A DNA stretch of 53,072 nt, from NCBI GenBank assembly GCA_964598185.1, contig CAZRAT010000002.1, positions 3,769-56,840 of the forward strand. Reading direction: 5' to 3'. The notes under the pieces are model-generated. The model worked only from the letters and a program-made list of their open reading frames with translations. It was not told the origin of the DNA and did no database searches. The stretch comes from Candidatus Woesearchaeota archaeon (GTDB taxonomy: Archaea; Nanobdellota; Nanobdellia; Pacearchaeales; GW2011-AR1). A program made the translations under genes and the position numbers. This document shows positions 26,658-42,942 of the stretch, one piece after another. Each line of letters opens with the position of its first letter. The first letter of the stretch is position 1.

Positions 26658-26687
26658 AGTTTATTAATTCTCAAGTGATAACAAAAC

Positions 26688-26701
26688 AAAAGGTTTAAAT
26701 A
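26688..26701 (+). promoter_or_regulatory. BRE/TATA promoter (AAAAGGTTTAAATA)
   Basis: ~25 nt upstream of the ATG at 26723. Confidence 0.5.
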
Positions 26702-26722
26702 GTCCAAATTAATAAAAGAATT

Positions 26723-26896
26723 ATGGAAAACACTAATTTAGAATTAAAAAAAGTTCCAAGGACAAATGAATCAGTTGATAAACAATTTGTTAGAAAAACA
26801 ATAGAAGATTTTAGAGATAATCTTGTTGTATCAATAAATCCTTTTCAAGAAATAGATAAATATAATAAATCTGAAAAAATTATTGAAAACATTTGA
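26723..26896 (+). CDS. hypothetical protein, probable 5-prime part of a frame-split gene
   Basis: The ATG has a well-placed promoter. This 57-codon ORF overlaps the next ORF, which has no ATG start. Confidence 0.4.
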   Translation: MENTNLELKKVPRTNESVDKQFVRKTIEDFRDNLVVSINPFQEIDKYNKSEKIIENI

Positions 26897-27707
26897 AAAA
26901 ATTTCTAAAAATTACAGAACAGAATTAGAAGAAATATCCCCGGATTACCATGAGAATGTTTTAAACTTGCTAGGAGATTCGCTTAGTGCTTTTTATCACT
27001 TGAGAAACAGCGAAGCAAGTAGAGGGTTAGATCGGTGTTCAGGTTTTTCAGAATTTTTGAAAGTTCCTGACTTTGAATATATTGATACTGTTTTAGAAAA
27101 CACTCCTTTAGGACATCATCAAAAAGAATTAGAAGACCAACTTATAGATAAAGAACTTTCAACAGAAGAAATAGACTCTTTATCACAAAAATATAATTTG
27201 GAACCTCATAAAGAAATATTAAATGAACAACCTACCTTGTTGCTTGGAAATGATTTACAATTAGAGGGAGATGGGGGAAGAAGACAAAGAAATAGAAATG
27301 ATAGTTATGTTGGGTTTACTGAAGAAATAAATAAAATTGTAAAAAAATCATTCGGCCTTTTTTATAGAGGAGATTATATGGTTGTTGGAGGAATAGATGG
27401 TTCTTTATCTAAAACCAATAGATTAGAATTTATTGCTCGCCCATCATTTCTAGATCCTCAATTTGGGTGTGGTGTAGCAGGTTTGCTTGGAGATGGAGGA
27501 CGAAATAAATCAGATGGGTCTGTTATTATAATAAGAGGAGATAAAAAGAAATATCTAAATTCTGCAAAAAAATATGCTGAGATTTACCAACATGAATTTG
27601 GAAAAGAAGTGCAAATAAAAAAGGTTCAAAGTTTCGAGGATTTAATCTTGGGGGTTGGAGTTGGCTCAATGTGTCCTTTTCCAAAAAACTTTGGCTTTAA
27701 ATCTTAA
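26883..27707 (+). CDS. hypothetical protein (GDGGR repeats), probable 3-prime part of a frame-split gene
   Basis: 274-codon ORF opening at 26856 with only a TTG start. No family recognised. Confidence 0.45.
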   Translation: MKTFEKISKNYRTELEEISPDYHENVLNLLGDSLSAFYHLRNSEASRGLDRCSGFSEFLKVPDFEYIDTVLENTPLGHHQKELEDQLIDKELSTEEIDSLSQKYNLEPHKEILNEQPTLLLGNDLQLEGDGGRRQRNRNDSYVGFTEEINKIVKKSFGLFYRGDYMVVGGIDGSLSKTNRLEFIARPSFLDPQFGCGVAGLLGDGGRNKSDGSVIIIRGDKKKYLNSAKKYAEIYQHEFGKEVQIKKVQSFEDLILGVGVGSMCPFPKNFGFKS

Positions 27708-28596: not shown

Positions 28597-28611
28597 CGAA
28601 AGATTTATATA
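28597..28611 (+). promoter_or_regulatory. probable rRNA operon promoter (CGAAAGATTTATATA)
   Basis: Consensus-like BRE/TATA ~70 nt upstream of the 16S processing-stem strand. Confidence 0.5.
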
Positions 28612-28698: not shown

Positions 28699-28926
28699 TT
28701 GTAGTTCTAATATTTATAGCCGTTGAATTCTATTCAACATCGTTAAATGAATTTAATCAATATCTTTTATAGATATTGAATATCAAATAATTCGTCTTTA
28801 GACGAAATATTTCTGATAGTACTTATTTGACCTAAGCCAATAGTTAGGAATTGTGTGAAGTGTAATTTTTCTTACAAAAATTATGCGCTGAGATTATTTT
28901 TTTAAATTATAATCAATGAAGTTTAA

Positions 28927-30376
28927 ATCCAGTTGATCCTGCTGGCGGCTGCGGCTCTCTGGTTTGCACTTAGACATGCAAGTTTTTTTGTTTGGTTCTT
29001 CGGAATTAAGTGAAAGGCGAACTGCTCAGTAACACGTAGCTAACCTACCCTTAGGTCAAGGATACCCTCGAGAAATTGAGACTAATACTTGATAAGAGAT
29101 ATACCCTGGAATGATTTATCTCTGAAACTCGCGCCTAAGGATGGGGCTGCGGCAGATTAGGTTGTTGGCGGGGTAATAGCCCACCAAGCCTATGATCTGT
29201 AAGGGCTCTTAGCGGAGAGGCCCTGAGAGGGAATCTGAGACACTATTCCCAGCCCTACGGGGTGCAGCAGTTAGGAATAATCTACAATGCGCGCAAGCGT
29301 GACAGTTTGAGCCAGAGTGTTTTCCAATTTGGAAAGCTTTTGTGAAATGTAAAAAGTTTTTCGAATAAGGACTGGGTAAGACTAGTGCCAGCCGCCGCGG
29401 TAATACTAGCGGTCCAAGTCGCAGCCATTTTTATTGGGTCTAAAACATCCGTAGCTTGTTTGATAAGTTTCTTGTGAAATTTTGCATCTTAAATGTAGAG
29501 CGCGCAAGAAATACTGTCAAGCTAGAGACTGGAAGACGTGAGAAGTATGTTCAAAGTAGCGGTAAAATGTGTTAATCTTGAGCAGACTAACAATAGCGAA
29601 GGCATCTCACGAGGACAGTTCTGACAGTAAGGGATGAAGGCTAGGGGCGCAAAACGGATTAGATACCCGTGTAGTCCTAGCAGTAAACACTGCACACTAA
29701 ACATTAGTACCTCCTCGAGAGGTATTGGTGCTGAAGGGAAGCCGAAGAGTGTGCTACCTGGGAAGTATAGTCGCAAGGCCGAAACTTAAAGGAATTGGCG
29801 GGGAGACACTACAACGAGTGACGCGTGCGGTTCAATTAGATTTTACACCGTGAACCTCACCAGGAGCGACAGCAGGATGAAGGTCAGTCTAAAGGGCTTA
29901 CCTGACACGCTGAGCGGAGATGCATGGCCGACGTCAGCCTGTGCTGTGAAGTGACCTGTTAAATCAGGTAACAGGCAAGACCCACATGTATATTTATCAT
30001 TACAATATACAGATTGCCTTGGTAACAAGGATGAAAGTGTGGGCTACGTTAGGTGGGTACAGCCCGACCGCCCTGGGCAACACGCGCGCGTCAATGGTGA
30101 ATACAATGGGATGCAACACCGAAAGGTGAAGCCAATCTCTTAAAGTTCATCTCAGTCCAGATTGAGGTTTGTAACTCAGCCTCATGACGCTGGAATTCGT
30201 AGTAATCGGATGTTATCAACGTCCGGTGAATAAGTCACTGTCTCTTGCACACACTGCCCGTCAAACCAACCAAGTTTATTTATGATGAAACTTTTCGAAG
30301 GAGAATCTTGGGTAAGCGAGGTAGGTTAAGTCGTCACAAGGTATCTGTAGGGGAACCTGCAGATGGATCACCTCCT
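28927..30376 (+). rRNA. 16S rRNA (about 1450 nt, ends approximate)
   Basis: 5-prime AATCCAGTTGATCCTGCTGGCGG, GTGCCAGCCGCCGCGGTAATAC, GGATTAGATACCCG, AAACTTAAAGGAATTGGCGGGG, 3-prime GGATCACCTCCT. Confidence 0.95.
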
Positions 30377-30472: not shown

Positions 30473-30588
30473 GGGCCCATAGTCCAATGGCTTAAGATAC
30501 TTCCCTTGCACGGAATAAGATGTGGAACATTATCACGTCTTTATTCCAAAGAACGGAAGAGGTCCGTGTTCGATTCACGGTGGGTCCA
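30473..30588 (+). tRNA. tRNA-Ala(UGC) with a 43-nt intron at 37/38 (30511..30553)
   Basis: Acceptor GGGCCCA/TGGGTCC with G3:U70, anticodon stem CTTCC/GGAAG, loop CTTGCA-C, T arm CCGTG-TTCGATT-CACGG. The intron forms a GGAATAAGA/TCTTTATTCC hairpin. Confidence 0.9.
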
Positions 30589-30701
30589 TATATGTGTTCG
30601 TTAGTTAGTCATTAAACAAGAACATACATTACCGAGAGACATCGGACAAAGTAGTTTAAATGTCAAGGGAAGATAAAAAGAAACCGCTTAGGTGTCTTTT
30701 A

Positions 30702-30723
30702 TGTTCGAATTACGGTGGGTCCA
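30702..30723 (+). pseudogene. degenerate duplicate of the tRNA-Ala 3-prime end
   Basis: GTTCGAATTACGGTGGGTCCA versus GTTCGATTCACGGTGGGTCCA (19/21). The T stem can no longer pair and there is no 5-prime half. Confidence 0.6.
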
Positions 30724-30769
30724 TTTTATTTTTTAGGAAATTGAAGTTATTATAAAATGGTAACAGATA

Positions 30770-30784
30770 GAAAGGTTTAAAAAA
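30770..30784 (+). promoter_or_regulatory. BRE/TATA promoter inside the rRNA spacer (GAAAGGTTTAAAAAA)
   Basis: ~25 nt upstream of the ATG at 30805. Confidence 0.5.
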
Positions 30785-30804
30785 TCAAATATGATATAAG
30801 AATT

Positions 30805-31182
30805 ATGACAGATAAAGATTTAGGAAATTTATTAAATCAAACTTCTAAAAAAAGAGTTAGCAATATAGATGTAATAAAATCATTTGGAAATAATTTTAAG
30901 AACATAGCAATAAATCTTCCTGGAGCTTTTTATGCTGCTCCAACATGGGTTAGAAAAAACTGTCCTGAAGAAGTAGAAGGGATAGTGGCTTGGTTAAGTA
31001 TGGCTGGGGCAGGAGTTCATGGTTTAGCATATTTATTACTTGGAAATGAGATAATAAATAATATATTTAATACAGATACTTCAAATCCTATTCATCTTCC
31101 ATTATATCTCTTACCTCTTGTCACAAATAGTCTTTCTTGGGGATATGAAACCTTCAGGAATAGAAAAGAAGATTTGGAATAA
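30805..31182 (+). CDS. hypothetical membrane-associated protein encoded in the tRNA-Ala/23S spacer
   Basis: 125-aa ORF with its own promoter and hydrophobic segments (IVAWLSMAGAGVHGLAYLLLG). No family recognised. Confidence 0.45.
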   Translation: MTDKDLGNLLNQTSKKRVSNIDVIKSFGNNFKNIAINLPGAFYAAPTWVRKNCPEEVEGIVAWLSMAGAGVHGLAYLLLGNEIINNIFNTDTSNPIHLPLYLLPLVTNSLSWGYETFRNRKEDLE

Positions 31183-31465
31183 TTAATCTTATTAACCTCT
31201 ATTGTATATTTTTCGCAAATCATATTCAATTTTTCTTTAACAACTTTGTGTTCTAGCAAAAAGTTTTTCTAAGACTACCGAACATTTTAAATACTGAAAT
31301 TTCACTTTAATATTAAATAAAAAATTATTATTATAAAATCGTAATAAAAAATATTCAAAATCATACTCTTTCCCAAGTTTCGTCGGGAAACGAGTTTCCT
31401 ACTCATTCACGAGATGGTGCGGCAACTATGTTGTTGTATCGTAATGAGAACTTTACGTTCAATGA

Positions 31466-31480
31466 AATAAGCAGTAGAAG
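31466..31480 (+). other. 23S processing stem, outer 5-prime strand (pairs with 34974..34988); the inner stem 31556..31565 pairs with 34963..34972
   Basis: AATAAGCAGTAGAAG / CTTCTACTGCTTATT is a perfect 15 bp. AATTCTTAGA / TCTAAGAATT is a perfect 10 bp. Confidence 0.65.
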
Positions 31481-32850
31481 AATCCCACTAGTTTGTATTA
31501 AAATACAAACTAATGACGGAAGGTTTTCAATTTATTGAAAACTTTTAAACAAATTAATTCTTAGACATACTACTAATTTATACTGTTAGACAGATAGCTT
31601 GGTTTTGGTTATGATGAAGGACGTGGCAAGCTGCGATAAGCTTGGGGGAGCTGCATGCAAGCTTTGATCCCAAGATTTCTGAATTATTCCGAGAGGAAAA
31701 AATACGCCGGGAATTGAAACATCTTAGTACCGGCAGGAAAAGAAAACAATAGTGATGCCCTTATTAGCAGCGAGCGAAAAGGGCCCGGGGCAATCTGAAT
31801 CTTCTCTTGAAAGAGAGATAGAAATGTGGTGAGGATAAACAGCTAAGTCGACGAGTCAAAGTGAACTGGAAAGTTCCACCTTAGAAGGTGATAGTCCTGT
31901 AGACTAAATCGATACACTGTTCCTCGACGAGTAGGGCTTCCTGGATTGGAGGTCTGAATACGGCGGGATTAACCGCCAACCCTAAATAAAACCAAAGTCC
32001 GATAGCGCACTAGTACCGCGAGGGAAAGCTGAAAAGTACTCTTAACAGAGGTTGAAAAGACTTGAAATCTAACAGTTACAGTTTGTTACTGCTCTATTCA
32101 CTTTAGTGTGGAAGGGTTGTAACGTACGTTTTGAAGAACGGGCCAGGGAGTTTTTCTATATGGCGAGGCTAATCAATTATATTGAGTAACCGAAGCGAAA
32201 GCAAGTGTGAAAGCGCGCGAGTCATATGGATAAGACCTGAAGCCAGATGATCTATTTATGGGCAAGCTGAAGTCTTTCGAAAGGAGGATGGAGGGCTGAA
32301 CCGGTGTTGTGGACATGCACTCGAATGACCTGTGAATAGGGGTGAAAAGCTTATCTAATCTGGCGATGGCTGGTTCCTGCTGAAATATGCCTACGTATAG
32401 TCTTGTGTAGTTTGTTGGCGGTGTAAAGTACGGATAAATCTTGCAGGAGCTAATGCTTACGGAGATTTTTCCAACTCAGAAACTGTTAACTGCGTAGCAC
32501 AAGAATCAGGTGCAGTATGTAAGATACTGTTCCGAGAGTGGAACAACACAGACCAGAGTTAAGGTCCCAAAATTTATGCTAAGTGTATCAAAAGGCGTCT
32601 TGAACCTGAGACACCGGGGATGTAAGCTTAGAAGCAGCTATCATTTAAAGAAAGCGTAACAGCTCACCCATCGAGGTTCAGGGCCCTGAAAATGGACGGG
32701 GCTAAGCATAATACCGATACTTTGGAGGCATTCGGTTTAAAATTAATATAGGTAAAATAAAAATTTTATCTGTCGTATAAAAAAGATATTTAATACGAGT
32801 GGGATTTTGATGTTGAGGATTTTTGTTTTAACTTAGAAGTTAAGACCAAT

Positions 32851-32866
32851 GGGAAGGTTTATAAAT
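32851..32866 (+). promoter_or_regulatory. BRE/TATA promoter inside the 23S insertion (GGGAAGGTTTATAAAT)
   Basis: ~25 nt upstream of the ATG at 32887. Confidence 0.5.
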
Positions 32867-32886
32867 GTTATAGATTAAGAGAAGTT

Positions 32887-33162
32887 ATGGAAAATAAAGA
32901 TGAACTAAGTCACCTTCGTTGTTATTGGACACGACCGTTTGGACATATCTGGAAAGAAGGCCAAACTTCTTATGAAAGAAATTGTGTACTTTGCAACCAA
33001 GATAGTATTAAAGGAAATTATGATGGAGGCTGGCATTATGACTTAGATGTTCATTATGATGAACTAACAGGAGGTCAAAAAGCTAGAACCTTGACTGAAA
33101 AACATCAGGCAAGAGCACTAAGAGCTTTAGACAAAAAGAAAAAAAGACTAAAAATTTCTTGA
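32887..33162 (+). CDS. small Cys/His-containing basic protein encoded in the 23S insertion (not LAGLIDADG)
   Basis: 91 aa. HLRC...H...CVLC pattern and a basic tail KKKKRLKIS. Followed by the hairpin TTCGTCAAAAACGAA. Confidence 0.45.
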   Translation: MENKDELSHLRCYWTRPFGHIWKEGQTSYERNCVLCNQDSIKGNYDGGWHYDLDVHYDELTGGQKARTLTEKHQARALRALDKKKKRLKIS

Positions 33163-33993
33163 AGACCCTTTTAAAATAATTCTTCACACTCACTCAAATT
33201 CGTCAAAAACGAATTTTCACAAATCATATTCAATTTTTCTCAACATCAAAATCTAATATTATTAATATAGAATGTTCTAGTAAGCAGGCGTACTATTTGC
33301 GCAGAAGTTTTTTCGAGAGAAAGAGTGGAGCGAATAGTAATGAGAATCCTGGTAAGAGTAGGATGTGATTATTCTGAGAATGAATAAGGTCGAAAGGGTA
33401 AGGTTTCCTTGGCAATATCGTTTAGCTAAGGGTTAGTCAGCACCTAAGTCGTATCTTAACTGAGTACGACGATGGATATCAGGTTAATATTCCTGGACTA
33501 ATTAAATCTTATATAATATAATTTGCTTTCGGATAGGCATGCAGGTGAAAGCCTGTTTTAACGAGAAATCTGTTGAGGGTAATCCTAAGATGCAGATGAA
33601 TTTTTGAATTGCTGCTGACTCCAAGAGCCAGTGAAAAGATTATACTAATGTTTCTTGCTTGCAAGAGACGTCCCAAAAAGTTGCAAAACTTTTTGGTGTT
33701 GATTTAATTAGCTGTACCCACAACCGACACTGGTGCCCAGGCTTAGTAGGCCAAGACCTGAAAGGTAAAACCAATTAAGGGAATTCGGCAAGTTAGTCCT
33801 GTAGCTTCGGCTGAAGGGATGTCTACCTTTGTGTGCTTAGTAATATGTGTGCATTGTTAGATCTCAGTAACAAGGATGGCCCGACTGTTTACCAAAAACG
33901 TAGCCAAGTGCTAATCTGAAAAGACTTGTATACTTGGTGAGACCTGCCCAGTGGTGGTGTCTAAAACTCCTTTTCAAGGGAGCTAAGGTCCAT

Positions 33994-34028
<35 letters not shown>

Positions 34029-35021
34029 ACGTAATACCTTGTCGTATGAATTGCGACTTGCATGAATGGTTTAACGAGGTTGTCACTGTCCCTAATTGGA
34101 GCCTTCCGAACATATCTTCCGGTGAATAGACCGGAGACACCTAGTGGGAAGCGTAGACCTTGTGGAACTTTACTGCAACTTGTTGTTGTAATTTTATAAG
34201 AAATGCATAGCATAGGTAGGAGCGTCGAAGTCGTCATTTTGGTGACGATGGAGCGAACTTGTAATACTACCCATTTTTTATAGAATTGCTTACCATTTAT
34301 GGGACAGCAGCAGGCGGGCAGTTTGGCTGGGGCGGCACCCTGTCGAAAAGATATCGATAGGACCCAAAGACAAGCTCATCCAGCTTGGAAATCTGGAGTT
34401 GAGTGCGAAGGCAAAAGCTTGTCTGACTGTTTTTTGAAAAGCAAGAAAAGCAGGAGCGAAAGCTGGGCTTAGTGAACCCACGTGCTTTTTTAATAGAAGC
34501 CGTGTCTGATAGAAAAGTTACCCCAAGGATAATTGGCTTGTCTCCCCCGATAGTCCGAATTGACGGGGAGGTTTGGTACACCGCTGTCGGCTCTCCCTAT
34601 CCTGCGCGTGCAGAAGCGTGCAAGGGTGCCGGAGTTCACGTATTAAAAGGGATCGTTAGCTGGGTTAAGAACGTCGCGAGACAGTTTGTATGATATCTAC
34701 TAGGTGTGTTATTGTCTGAGTGGAACAAGTTTCCAGTACGAGAGGAACGGAACTTGGTTGCCTCTGGTGAGCAGTTGTCAATTGGCAGGCTGCATAGCTA
34801 CGCAATGTGTGGATAAGAGCTGAATGCATCTAAGCTCGAAGCCATCCGCAAAACGAGACAATTAAGGCCGTCAAAGAAGATGACGTTGATAGAGTTCTTG
34901 TGTAAGATTGAAGGTTCGCCGACAATTTCAGCATAGAACTACTAATAGCCTCCATGTATTATTCTAAGAATTACTTCTACTGCTTATTTTGTTTGATTTA
35001 ATCTTAAAGTAGTTACATCAT

Positions 35022-35037
35022 AGAAAGATTTATAAAA
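35022..35037 (+). promoter_or_regulatory. BRE/TATA promoter-like box just 3-prime of the 23S (AGAAAGATTTATAAAA)
   Basis: Consensus-like box. The next ATG (35101) is ~65 nt downstream, which implies a leader. Confidence 0.35.
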
Positions 35038-35100
35038 CTTAAAATTTTTAAAACACAATAATTACATTCAGATACAGATGTAAGGAAGTATAAACAACAA

Positions 35101-35412
35101 ATGGAAAATGATAAATTAAGAAAAATTGCAGGAAAAATATTTAATTATAATCCGTCTTCTTTAAAAGAAGAATTTGCATGTACTGTTGGTCCAATTTTAT
35201 CTTTGCTTGGATTAAATAATTTAATGCCTAATGTTTCTAAACCATTAAGTAAAAAAGATATTTCTCAAAAATTAGAAGATGGAGGTTTTGAATTATCTGC
35301 TGAAAACATTATTGATTTGAAACCATGGTATATGGAGAGAAGTTCTCATATGAGATCAATTGCTCGTCTTAATGACGGGAATTATGCTTTAGGTTCTTAT
35401 TTCTTTGATTAA
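35101..35412 (+). CDS. hypothetical protein
   Basis: 103-aa ORF, no family recognised. Confidence 0.4.
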   Translation: MENDKLRKIAGKIFNYNPSSLKEEFACTVGPILSLLGLNNLMPNVSKPLSKKDISQKLEDGGFELSAENIIDLKPWYMERSSHMRSIARLNDGNYALGSYFFD

Positions 35413-35436
35413 ATTTATATTCAAAAACTTTTGCTC

Positions 35437-35643
35437 TCAACCAACCTTCTCCTCAATAATCTGTGAAATTGGTTTCCCTGTTTTTTCTTTTATTGCTTTT
35501 AGTTTGTTTATAGTTGCTACTGATAAAGTTATGTCAATTCTTTTTCTTTGGAACGGAAGCTCGTGAGTTTTGTCGTAGTTTTCGAGGATTTCAAAAGCTT
35601 CTTTGTTCTCTTTCAAAATTTGTTTGATTTCATTTGATTGCAT
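35437..35643 (-). CDS. putative antitoxin (ribbon-helix-helix-like) of a Doc-type TA pair
   Basis: 68 aa. C-terminal RIDITLSVATINKLKAIKEKTGKPISQIIEE. Overlaps the toxin gene by 14 nt. Confidence 0.55.
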   Translation of the reverse strand: MQSNEIKQILKENKEAFEILENYDKTHELPFQRKRIDITLSVATINKLKAIKEKTGKPISQIIEEKVG

Positions 35644-35971
35644 TTTTCATTCTCCACTCAATGTTTCTTATTTCCTGAATATTGTTTTTTGCTATTGAAG
35701 TTATATGATGTATTAGTAAATCCCTTTCTACTTGCTTTTTGTTTTCTTTTGCAAAAGCAAAAGTTAAGAACATTGCAGTTCTTTTATTTCCGTCTGAAAA
35801 TGGGTGGTCAACTAAAATTGCCCTTAAGAGATATGCCAATTTTTTGTAATCTCCAAGTTTCTTGTCTTCTAATTTATCAAACGCAAAGTCAAGACTTGAA
35901 TCGCTTCTGAGGTTTCCCCCAAATCCATGATTGATTCTCAATAAGTCTTTCTTACTAATATTCATACACAT
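35630..35971 (-). CDS. doc: Fic/Doc family toxin
   Basis: HPFSDGNKRTAM fits the Doc-type Fic motif (H.F.D.NKR). Confidence 0.75.
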   Translation of the reverse strand: MCMNISKKDLLRINHGFGGNLRSDSSLDFAFDKLEDKKLGDYKKLAYLLRAILVDHPFSDGNKRTAMFLTFAFAKENKKQVERDLLIHHITSIAKNNIQEIRNIEWRMKNAIK

Positions 35972-42383: not shown

Positions 42384-42775
42384 TGTAAGTCAGGTAGTTA
42401 ACTTCGGGACTTTGATATTAGATTATCAAGAAGTCAAGATATGATTTCTAAGCCCTGCGGAAGGTCCGGACACTATAAAGACTGTCAGGGAAATCCTGGT
42501 TGCTGTGAAGCAAAGCTCTGTTACAGAAACGCCACAGCCTTATCATGGCAAGAGGGAAACCTCAAGCCGTCGTCCGAAATTTCAGTTTCGAACGAGAGTA
42601 ATGAACCTTGCGGGGAACGTCGACGATAAGGATTTGATGAAACGGGCATCTCGGTCAGTGCAAGTCTAAGACGCATAGTTGAATGTTAACACGTTTGGTC
42701 TGGCCCCTTTTTGGGGCATGACATCCTAAAGGAGGCCTCAGCGAACGACAGAATCTGGCCTATTCCTGACTTACA
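42384..42775 (+). ncRNA. rnpB: RNase P RNA
   Basis: P1 TGTAAGTCAGG / CCTGACTTACA. GCGGAAGGTCCGGACAC (CR-I-like), GTTACAGAAACGCCACAGCC, AGAGGGAAACC, GACAGAATCTGGCCTAT (CR-V-like). GC-rich island. Confidence 0.8.
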
Positions 42776-42870: not shown

Positions 42871-42942
42871 GGGGTCCTAGCTCAGCGGGAGAGCACATGA
42901 CTGAAGATCATGGTGTCCCGGGTTCGACTCCCGGGGACCCCA
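42871..42942 (+). tRNA. tRNA-Phe(GAA)
   Basis: GGGGTCC/GGACCCC acceptor, GCTC-AGCGGGA-GAGC D arm, CATGA-CTGAAGA-TCATG anticodon arm, CCGGG-TTCGACT-CCCGG T arm. No encoded CCA. Confidence 0.92.

Follow-up and report, generated by a model that had tools for sequence, protein, structure and literature searches.

The window analysed in this work is a stretch of 53,072 nt of archaeal DNA carrying a 16S gene, a tRNA-Ala gene and a 23S gene. The spacer between tRNA-Ala and 23S measures 977 nt from the Rfam boundaries and encloses a reading frame of 125 codons (ORF125). A second frame (ORF91) lies inside an insertion in helix 45 (H45) of the 23S gene, and a third (ORF103) follows the 23S gene. Each is carried by a cassette, composed of a 5' module of about 60 nt with a strong predicted BRE/TATA promoter, a single small ORF or at times more than one, and a 27-nt 3' box. 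Loci in relatives, which are DPANN archaea of the Nanoarchaeota/Woesearchaeota/Pacearchaeota type, are given L numbers. The features are as follows.

28926-30376, 16S rRNA gene (Rfam placement)
30473-30588, + strand, tRNA-Ala (UGC), interrupted by a 45-nt intron (46.1 bits with the Rfam tRNA model); bounds the spacer on its 5' side
30590-30629, + strand, hairpin directly 3' of tRNA-Ala, ATATGTGTTC ... GAACATACAT (read by eye)
30702-30734, + strand, tRNA-Ala 3'-end copy (30702-30723), then TTTTATTTTTT; conserved spacer feature
30735-30804, + strand, 5' module of the ORF125 cassette: AGGAAATTGAAG, GAAGTTATTA and predicted promoter ACAGATAGAAAGGTTTAAAAA (30763-30783)
30805-31182, + strand, ORF125, small conserved protein
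31210-31236, + strand, 27-nt 3' box of the ORF125 cassette, TTTTCGCAAATCATATTCAATTTTTCT
31242-31269, + strand, terminator-like hairpin AACTTT/AAAGTT followed by TTTTTC (read from the sequence)
31278-31294, + strand, BRE/TATA-like box CCGAACATTTTAAATAC; conserved at this position in L025, L031 and L070-73
31353-31368, + strand, spacer-native version of the 27-nt box, ATTCAAAATCATACTC, where the conserved 23S leader begins
31465-31480, + strand, 5' strand of the 23S processing stem, pairing with 34974-34989
31566-34963, 23S rRNA gene (Rfam placement)
about 32735-33270, + strand, insertion in the 23S H45 loop (533-nt insert in the Rfam alignment)
32803-32817 with 33239-33253, + strand, closing stem of the insertion, a 15-bp perfect inverted repeat
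32845-32865, + strand, predicted promoter within the insertion
32887-33162, + strand, ORF91 within the insertion; homologues 61-99% identical
33214-33240, + strand, 27-nt box within the insertion
35009-35432, + strand, third cassette, immediately downstream of the 23S 3' processing stem (from sequence and module alignment)
35009-35041, 35101-35412 and 35413-35432, + strand, promoter module, ORF103 and degenerate box AATTTATATTCAAAAACTT of the third cassette

Judged by its coding signature and its homologues, ORF125 is a genuine protein-coding gene with its own BRE/TATA promoter, as a first, sequence-only reading of this DNA had proposed. The codon score was 0.336 per codon (mean of the window genes, 0.30), with the other frames negative or near zero. 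Three full-length homologues (P0009, P0010 and P0011; 52, 47 and 42% identical) have invariant motifs in common, and the BRE/TATA element AGAAAGGTTTAAAAA (30769-30783) is located 22 nt upstream of the ATG. The protein has one hydrophobic segment (about residues 57-79); it had no match in Pfam, NCBIfam or PHROG, and its AlphaFold model, with a pLDDT of 48.7, was uninformative. Contig L001, from another sample, is identical to the window save for four homopolymer indels; since substitutions are absent, the resulting frameshifts were attributed to sequencing errors and gene decay was rejected. The ORF125 mRNA would start from its own promoter, be leaderless or nearly so, and end at the box or at the hairpin and T-run beyond it.

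When the spacer was aligned locally with the 23S insertion and with the tRNA, only the 27-mer and the copy of the tRNA 3' end were recovered, the rest being within the shuffle range. As similarity is limited to these two repeats, a tandem duplication of the tRNA unit and a decayed second copy of the 23S gene are ruled out. A permissive Rfam scan of the spacer gave sub-threshold noise alone, and the whole spacer folded as RNA showed no unusual stability (z = -0.6). Several of its elements are found in relatives. The hairpin next to the tRNA has an equivalent in L031 (ATATGTTTTC ... GAAAACATAT) with a compensatory change from G-C to U-A (by eye), and the tRNA-Ala intron has a homologue in L025. 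Counterparts of the spacer-native box align with it in L025 (ATCACAAATCATGCTC) and in the spacers of ten or more relatives (ATCACAAATCATAYTCAA). The 23S processing stem is a 16-bp perfect inverted repeat. The BRE/TATA-like box at 31278-31294 resembles the 16S promoter CGAAAGATTTATATAC (28597-28611) and is a candidate promoter of the 23S gene.

The copy of the tRNA 3' end (30702-30724) is identical to 30567-30589 at 21 of 23 positions, and these are the sole two copies in the window (0 expected). It had been regarded as a flank carried along by the cassette. Elements resembling a tRNA 3' end, with T-runs, occupy the same place in L031, which has a different cassette, and in L025, which has none (the L025 tRNA is 89% identical, with a closely matching 23S leader). 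Because the cassette-less locus retains it, the copy is, by its distribution, not part of the cassette. The T-run after it is likely the terminator of the 16S-tRNA unit. The operon would effectively consist of two units, 16S-tRNA-Ala ending at this T-run and 23S starting at the 31278-31294 box; we infer the promoters, the terminators and the separate 23S transcription from sequence. ORF125 may thus simply sit between two transcription units.

The 27-mer is identical to the 3' end of the H45 insertion at 26 of 27 positions, and the homology first noticed between them holds. The window has two copies only at up to three mismatches (0 expected) and none in reverse complement; a general terminator was rejected on this count. 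The box core is CACAAATCATATTCAAT(WW)TTCT. The 21 nt of the core came up in 62 public loci, of which 7 were from genomes, 51 from metagenomes and 4 from viral collections; most copies end a 23S H45 insertion on its 3' side, and in about 30 of the 62 loci the 23S exon ATAGAATGTTCTRGTAAGCAGGCG comes next. These loci were gathered by exact match to the box, so that its apparent invariance and its rRNA association are inflated. The 21-nt core is identical in about 50 contigs with 23S exons that differ by 10-18%, which points to a selected element and not to a recent private duplication or relic. Selection may have kept the box as an RNA-level 3'-end or processing signal. An antisense partner for the box was rejected, as its duplex energies with the leaders, the trailer, 16S, 23S and RNase P RNA were no better than those of shuffled boxes.

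An exon-like 11-mer (TGTTCTAGCAA) does follow the 27-mer, at 31249-31259, one base away from where it was first placed, in the loop of the 31242-31269 hairpin. It is identical to the exon TGTTCTAGTAA (33273-33283) at 10 of 11 positions. There are six near-matches to it in the window (1.2 expected), and the post-hoc chance of finding one within 50 nt of the 27-mer is about 0.002. The 11-mer in the window could be of chance origin.

Next, we analysed the 23S insertion. It takes the place of the H45 apical loop, where the insertion-less L023 has the tetraloop GTAT, and the last bases of its box start the 3' strand of the long closing stem. Compensatory changes affect 11 of the 22 pairs of the H45 stem plus closing stem across relatives. 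Among 27 distinct H45 insertions (about 200-1200 nt), the ends are conserved and the cargo is unrelated. The first reading had spoken of intron or cassette mobility; for the insertion, the label intron is unproven. BHB motifs have two 3-nt bulges on opposite strands, 4 bp apart, at the exon-intron junctions. In the consensus fold of eight relatives, a 5' loop of 8-10 nt past the H45 stem faces a 3-nt bulge (AUA) in the 3' strand, followed by the closing stem; staggered bulges, and with them a canonical BHB motif, were absent from this fold, and a relaxed motif at the junctions is still conceivable. A scan of the window with Rfam 15 at gathering thresholds reported rRNAs, tRNAs and RNase P RNA only, and no group I intron. 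ORF91 and ORF103, like ORF125, had no Pfam, NCBIfam or PHROG match, to homing endonucleases (LAGLIDADG, GIY-YIG, HNH or His-Cys box) or otherwise. Homing endonucleases were also absent from 20 cargo ORFs of relatives (H45, spacer and ectopic cassettes), in which the sole significant match was a ParE toxin, with a weak DUF6290 match on the ParE partner. An insert in the H45 loop with an extended, covarying closing stem is the position of the bacterial-type helix-45 IVS, which RNase III excises without re-ligation, leaving a fragmented 23S rRNA. No Pfam match to the S23p/23S_rRNA_IVP family was obtained for ORF91 or the other cargo ORFs.

In relatives, cassettes occupy a few slots: the H45 apical loop, the spacer separating tRNA-Ala from 23S, the 3' flank of 23S, the RNase P RNA-tRNA-Phe gap, and some ordinary intergenic sites. 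The box follows different small ORFs in the spacers of ten relatives (L007, L013, L017, L018, L020, L031, L032, L033, L035 and L059). At the other end, the 5' module of ORF125 aligns with those of H45, spacer, 23S 3'-flank and ectopic cassettes (17/23 identical, counted by eye, to GGGAAATTGATTTAATTATCAAAA of L053), and its AGGAAATTGAAG is related to the inner 5' strand of the H45 closing stem. On these alignments the 5' modules are homologous across slots, and the promoter module may partly represent a promoter consensus general to the lineage.

Each of three ORF families was found in two or more slot types, and corresponding empty sites are present. The ORF125 family is in the spacer slot in the window and in L070-73 (four assemblies). 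It is in the 23S 3' flank of L074, which is syntenic with window positions 34752-35053 and 35443-35474, an ORF125 homologue replacing ORF103 at the site of that cassette. It also lies between rpoK and enolase in L068/69 (no clear box in L068), a site that is empty in the window. The ORF91 family is in H45 (window, L004, L005 and L063), after rpS2 (L002) and beside tRNA-Phe in L003, syntenic with the slot between RNase P RNA and tRNA-Phe. The PDWKQWIPIYG family is in H45 (L042 and L059) and in the RNase P RNA-tRNA-Phe gap (L062). Some ectopic copies carry 11-41 nt of 23S exon (15-41 nt in L003, L010, L051, L053 and L056), and in L053 an entire helix-45 unit, flanked by about 20 nt of each exon, sits between protein genes. 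Together, the presence of ORF families in several slots, the empty sites and the exon carried to ectopic positions support relocation of the cassettes, whose positions differ between genomes, on contigs that are mostly short metagenomic assemblies and of which at least L011 looks chimeric. Movement between structured-RNA contexts, as first suggested, is thus borne out by the ORF125 family.

The spacer holds a real small gene, ORF125, probably built as a member of a lineage-specific family of cassettes associated with stable RNAs. Movement could proceed by DNA recombination between the conserved 5' modules and 3' boxes, with occasional imprecise events copying pieces of the adjoining RNA gene. 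A recombinase, reverse transcriptase or homing endonuclease was not found among 40 ORFs scanned across the 53-kb window. More tentatively, these genomes may possess a dedicated cassette-exchange system with stable-RNA landing pads (H45 loop, spacer, and the regions flanking 23S, RNase P RNA and tRNA genes), the box being its recombination site, its RNA-processing site or both.

The spacer might also be an ordinary one, with 16S-tRNA and 23S separately transcribed, an unremarkable gene in between and the 27-mer a terminator or 3'-UTR motif of the lineage. We consider this improbable. In its favour are the T-run after the tRNA-like element and the conserved BRE/TATA-like box upstream of the 23S leader; the 23S genes of L031 and L070 lack a 16S immediately upstream, and homologues of ORF125 and ORF91 also reside at ordinary chromosomal sites. 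However, in a window of roughly 50 genes, the two full boxes and the degenerate one are all in or directly beside the rRNA operon. The box forms the 3' end of the 23S insertion, where it joins a covarying stem, in 27 distinct insertions, and ectopic copies contain 23S exon fragments. Its AATTCT variant is unlike an intrinsic archaeal terminator because it has no T-run.

A one-off relic of intron mobility, the original interpretation, would require a jump from the 23S insertion into the spacer, the cassette bringing along a tRNA fragment at one end and an insertion/exon fragment at the other. The near-identity of the two 27-mers, the 11-mer following in the same order and the insertion ends with exon fragments at ectopic sites of other loci all agree with such a jump, but we regard it as unlikely. 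The box is equally conserved in distant relatives, so the 26/27 identity dates no recent copy, and the 52%-identical ORF125 homologue in the same slot of L070-73 indicates an old or recurrent arrangement. The tRNA-like element is independent of this cassette (L025 and L031), and a BHB motif, a group I match and a homing endonuclease are missing. Of the original interpretation, the gene, the box homology and the movement were retained, but the tRNA flank was not; a recent private copy finds no support, and the intron is unproven. The tRNA repeats invite another explanation, in which they are attL and attR of an integrase-type element in tRNA-Ala and the ORF is leftover cargo. Integration into a tRNA gene classically leaves a direct copy of the tRNA 3' end, and here 21 of 23 positions agree. 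Nevertheless, the two copies bracket only 112 nt of conserved spacer hairpins, with no ORF between them and the cassette outside; no integrase was found among the 40 window ORFs scanned, and L025 keeps the element without a cassette. This origin is very improbable. Membership of ORF125 in a stable-RNA-associated cassette family remains the preferred reading.

Protein genes are not usually expected in rRNA operons, homing endonucleases inside introns excepted. In these DPANN archaea, promoter-bearing small accessory genes appear inside 23S, in the spacer and beside other stable-RNA genes, bounded by common sequence modules and varying in position between related genomes. If this is correct, small genes of very reduced genomes have a new habitat and possibly a route of exchange, and the question arises of how the ribosome tolerates or removes a promoter-bearing helix-45 insert. 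The box would also give annotators a sequence tag for genes that are now missed or mislabelled in MAGs. Should the cassette-exchange system itself exist, accessory small-protein genes would be shuffled and expressed from within the rRNA operon, and the 23S rRNA would be made in pieces or with an mRNA-coding expansion. Full-text literature searches turned up no account of ORF cassettes in helix 45 or in the rRNA spacers of archaea, and the family is apparently undescribed.

The cassettes resemble those of integrons in their small, variable, co-oriented ORFs, conserved end site, defined platforms and arrays (L023, L029 and L051), but each has its own predicted promoter and the platforms are stable-RNA genes. 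Integron attC sites are imperfect inverted repeats (R''-L''/L'-R') of 55-140 nt; the box has 27 nt and, on inspection of its sequence, no internal inverted repeat, and the 40 window ORFs scanned include no IntI-type tyrosine recombinase. The tRNA 3'-end duplications of integrative elements find a likeness in the direct repeat of the tRNA-Ala end, but here the copy persists with or without the cassette.

Group I introns are reported in the LSU genes of Woesearchaeota and Pacearchaeota (positions 1923, 1931 and 2593; PMC6125680), and archaeal rRNA introns (BHB and group I) often carry LAGLIDADG homing endonucleases. The cassettes share with them the rRNA genes of the same archaeal groups, the carriage of ORFs and signs of mobility; they differ in having no canonical BHB, no Rfam group I match and no homing endonuclease (0 of 20 cargo ORFs), and the helix-45 loop is not among the group I positions listed in that study. 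CPR bacteria, also ultra-small and uncultured, have many rRNA insertions too, some of unknown type and 500-1000 bp long, in which ORFs are mainly homing endonucleases or are absent; promoter-bearing cassettes common to spacer and tRNA-flank slots are not reported there (PMC11270868). Bacterial IVSs in helix 45 occur in Campylobacter 23S rRNA (PMC2801512) and, with an S23p ORF, in Coxiella burnetii (PMC4990558). Like the insertion described here, they are apical in helix 45, have a long closing stem, may contain an ORF and are present or absent among relatives. By contrast, the insertion here is archaeal; its cargo varies greatly between relatives and includes many unrelated small ORFs as well as ParE-type toxin pairs, but no S23p; a separate BRE/TATA promoter is predicted for each ORF; and the cassette ends are also found outside 23S, both in the spacer and next to the genes for tRNA and RNase P RNA.

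ORF125, the small ORF at 30805-31182 in the spacer between the tRNA-Ala and 23S genes, is a real gene. In-frame codon usage was 0.336 per codon (mean of 29 long window genes 0.30), and the other five frames of the locus scored negative or near zero. A word-indexed search gave matches from the same organism only; HMMER, run in full over 1.8 billion cluster representatives, recovered the homologues P0009 (112 aa, 52% identity), P0010 (125 aa, 47% identity, full length) and P0011 (146 aa, 42% identity). The motifs APT..R, H72, Y76 and LP..TN..S..YE.F..R are invariant in the family alignment. ORF125 had no match in Pfam, NCBIfam or PHROG, and its AlphaFold model was helical and unreliable (pLDDT 48.7). 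The related contig L001, from another JGI sample, carries the window sequence save for four homopolymer indels; since it differs by these alone, its frameshifts are sequencing errors. The stable-RNA genes of the window are as follows:

28926-30376, 16S rRNA gene (Rfam)
30473-30588, tRNA-Ala gene, anticodon UGC, with a 45-nt intron (Rfam)
31566-34963, 23S rRNA gene (Rfam)
42389-42770, RNase P RNA gene
42871-42942, tRNA-Phe gene

The intron-containing tRNA was missed by ARAGORN and detected by Rfam alone; its UGC anticodon and G3:U70 pair identify it as tRNA-Ala. The related contig L025 has a homologous 45-nt intron, and the tRNA of another, L031, is intronless. The neighbours in the window are archaeal core genes (RtcB, FttA, proteasome, Rad50/Mre11, RNase J, exosome Rrp4/41/42, RpoK, enolase, S2, form III RuBisCO and Cbf5), and none of the 40 window ORFs scanned was an integrase, transposase, reverse transcriptase or homing endonuclease. 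Identity to MAG contigs labelled Woesearchaeota, Nanoarchaeota or 'archaeon' was 87-94% for the 16S and 80-90% for the 23S, which places the source in this group as an AT-rich DPANN archaeon.

The sequence-only reading had taken the spacer cassette for an apparent relic of mobility carrying pieces of its former tRNA and 23S flanks. All the features that it listed are present; its interpretation is supported in part. The copy of the tRNA-Ala 3' end (30702-30724 vs. 30567-30589) is identical at 21 of 23 positions, and the 27-nt box at the cassette 3' end (31210-31236) matches a second copy within the 23S gene (33214-33240) at 26 of 27; each pair is unique in the window, with none expected. The 11-mer resembling 23S exon lies at 31249-31259, one base from the position first reported, and matches at 10 of 11 positions (post hoc chance of falling there ~0.002). 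Local alignment of the spacer against the 23S insertion and the tRNA returned the tRNA 3'-end and 27-nt repeats and no further similarity.

The spacer was compared with 15 spacers from relatives and with that of L031. In many, tRNA-Ala and the 23S leader are separated by a small ORF other than ORF125 (among them L007, L013, L017, L018, L020, L031, L032, L033, L035 and L059). A ATCACAAATCATAYTCAA box follows the ORF; its TTCAAC often folds locally into a small hairpin, which covaries from lineage to lineage. The ORF-less spacers (L021, L025, L034 and L063) retain this box where the 23S leader begins. In L025, the nearest spacer to that of the window (tRNA 89% identical, leader closely matching), the cassette is absent and almost nothing separates the tRNA-like element, TGTTCGATGAACCAGGTCCAttt, from the promoter-like box. 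The L031 spacer, with an unrelated ORF of 93 aa, shares the order of the window: tRNA-Ala, conserved hairpin, tRNA-3'-like element, T-run, 5' module, ORF, 27-mer, CCGAAGATTTTAAATACC and 23S leader. From this comparison, the cassette (~30735-31270) is a presence/absence unit and the tRNA 3'-end copy is a feature of the spacer outside it. The proposal that the copy is a flank carried by the cassette is therefore not supported, since cassette-less L025 keeps the tRNA-like element. A spacer-native box lies at 31353-31368, and the window holds this box plus the cassette 27-mer. The spacer hairpin GGGAAG..AAACCGCNNGGTG.. (30667-30701) recurs in the L059, L063 and L033 spacers with compensatory changes in its stem between lineages; L059 has two copies, one abutting the 23S processing stem.

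The second copy of the box belongs to an insertion (32735-33270) that takes the place of the apical loop of 23S helix 45 and is widespread in related archaea. The relative L023, without this insertion, reads GGCATTC-GTAT-GAATGTTC there, GTAT being the tetraloop. Public collections were scanned for the 21-nt core of the 27-mer, CAAATCATATTCAATWWTTCT, giving 7 loci in genomes, 51 in metagenomes and 4 in viral collections; at about 30, the 23S exon ...ATAGAATGTTCTRGTAAGCAGGCG follows the core after 10-60 nt. We delimited 27 distinct helix-45 insertions in relatives (~200-1200 nt each), with conserved 5' ends (G-TTTAAAATT-GTGTTGGGAG-AAGATTGAT) and 3' ends (ATCA-CAAATCATATTCAATAATTCT-CCCAACAC-AATATA). 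Their cargo is unrelated from one insertion to another and consists of one to three small rRNA-sense ORFs, many preceded by BRE/TATA-like boxes. Among them are the family of ORF91 (the ORF in the window insertion), toxin pairs of the ParE type, small hydrophobic proteins and numerous orphan ORFs. In the consensus fold of 8 relatives, the helix-45 stem is accompanied by a closing stem of 14 bp, and 11 of the 22 pairs in the two show compensatory changes; in the window the closing stem is a perfect 15 bp (32803-32817 with 33239-33253). Relatives' 23S genes (L007, L013, L027, L032, L033, L042, L059 and L063) carry further 400-800-nt insertions at two other sites (window equivalents ~34020-34030 and ~34675), which the window lacks.

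The 27-mer ends in TTCT, and with these four bases the closing stem's 3' strand begins; the remainder of the box is unpaired. Neither the rRNAs nor RNase P RNA is significantly complementary to the box. Its invariance is partly a product of gathering loci by exact box match, and L005 has a variant sequence. One box variant without a T-run makes a plain intrinsic terminator unlikely; our best guess is an RNA 3'-end or processing signal.

The cassettes have a conserved anatomy and differ in position between genomes. In four independent assemblies (L070-73), P0009 is encoded directly upstream of the 23S promoter-like box and leader, in a cassette with a helix-45-type 5' module and the box TTTTACAATTCATATTCAATTTTTCT. 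P0011 lies immediately 3' of the 23S 3' processing stem in L074, with flanks syntenic with window 34752-35053 and 35443-35474; there the window has the ORF103 cassette (35009-35432), placed directly after that stem, which shares the promoter module and has a box in degenerate form. P0010 lies between an rpoK-like gene and enolase in L068/69, and these are neighbours 30 nt apart in the window, an empty site. The ORF91 family occupies helix 45 in the window, L004, L005 and L063, adjoins the L003 tRNA-Phe (in synteny with the RNase P RNA-tRNA-Phe slot of the window), and lies 3' of rpS2 in L002 and of an RRM-protein gene in the P0004 contig. A PDWKQWIPIYG family is found in helix 45 (L042, L059) and in the RNase P RNA-tRNA-Phe gap (L062); this gap is filled also in L010 and empty in the window. 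In L053, two protein genes flank a whole helix-45 unit that includes ~20 nt from each 23S exon, and L056, L010, L051 and L003 carry the insertion 3' end with 15-41 nt of exon. Downstream of the 23S, L023 (no helix-45 insertion) and L029 (only the 3' end of its 23S visible) have co-oriented arrays of 9 or 10 small ORFs with boxes. The 5' modules align across all slot types; the window spacer module, AGGAAATTGAAGTTATTATAAAAT, is identical at 17 of 23 positions to the inner strand of the L053 closing stem.

Several other features were observed. The position 3' of the rpS2-like gene, occupied by an ORF91 homologue in L002, holds in the window a 57-aa ORF (26681-26897) whose promoter module is cassette-like. 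Convergent with ORF103 on the minus strand (35437-35971) are the gene of a Fic/DOC-family protein (PF02661) and, immediately upstream of it, a 68-aa ORF; this pair beside a cassette slot is a possible toxin-antitoxin pair. In L023 (11960-12113), ~100 nt spanning the promoter of tRNA-Phe and the initial 13 nt of the tRNA are directly duplicated where the enlarged RNase P RNA-tRNA-Phe gap has its edge, a second partial stable-RNA duplication at a slot boundary. In L003 the tRNA-Phe (498-570; window 42871-42942) is inverted relative to its neighbours and adjacent to the ORF91 cassette. L011, from a MAG labelled Proteobacteria, joins the 27-mer and archaeal 23S exon to genes unlike this AT-rich archaeal lineage and is therefore probably chimeric; L006, labelled Paceibacterota, carries an archaeal 23S and is probably misbinned.

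ORF125 is probably transcribed from its own promoter, and, as the TATA box ends 22 nt upstream of the ATG, its mRNA would be leaderless or nearly so, with a putative 3' end at the box or at the hairpin and T-run at 31242-31269. The 16S-tRNA unit may end in the T-run (30724-30734) that follows the tRNA-like element, and the 23S unit may begin from the conserved box CCGAACATTTTAAATAC (31278-31294); ORF125 would then sit between two transcription units. The simplest route of relocation would be recombination or gene conversion between common 5' modules and 3' boxes. Imprecise events may copy adjacent RNA-gene sequence, which would explain the exon fragments and the partial tRNA-Phe duplication of L023, and perhaps the tRNA-Ala 3' copy.

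Known mobile elements were considered as alternatives. The helix-45 insertion failed the tests run for a BHB intron, a group I intron and a homing-endonuclease intron: no canonical BHB motif was found at the insertion junctions, Rfam gave no group I match in the window, and none of 20 cargo ORFs scanned from helix-45, spacer and ectopic cassettes was a homing endonuclease. The tests for an integron and for a tRNA-integrating element also failed, and a full-text literature search returned no description of such cassettes in archaea. The ORF125 cassette is best described as belonging to a family, not recognised before, of small-gene cassettes that are associated with genes for stable RNAs. The helix-45 insertion resembles the ORF-bearing helix-45 IVSs of bacteria (PMC4990558), but it is set apart by the domain of its host, by its cargo and promoters, and by its spread to other slots.
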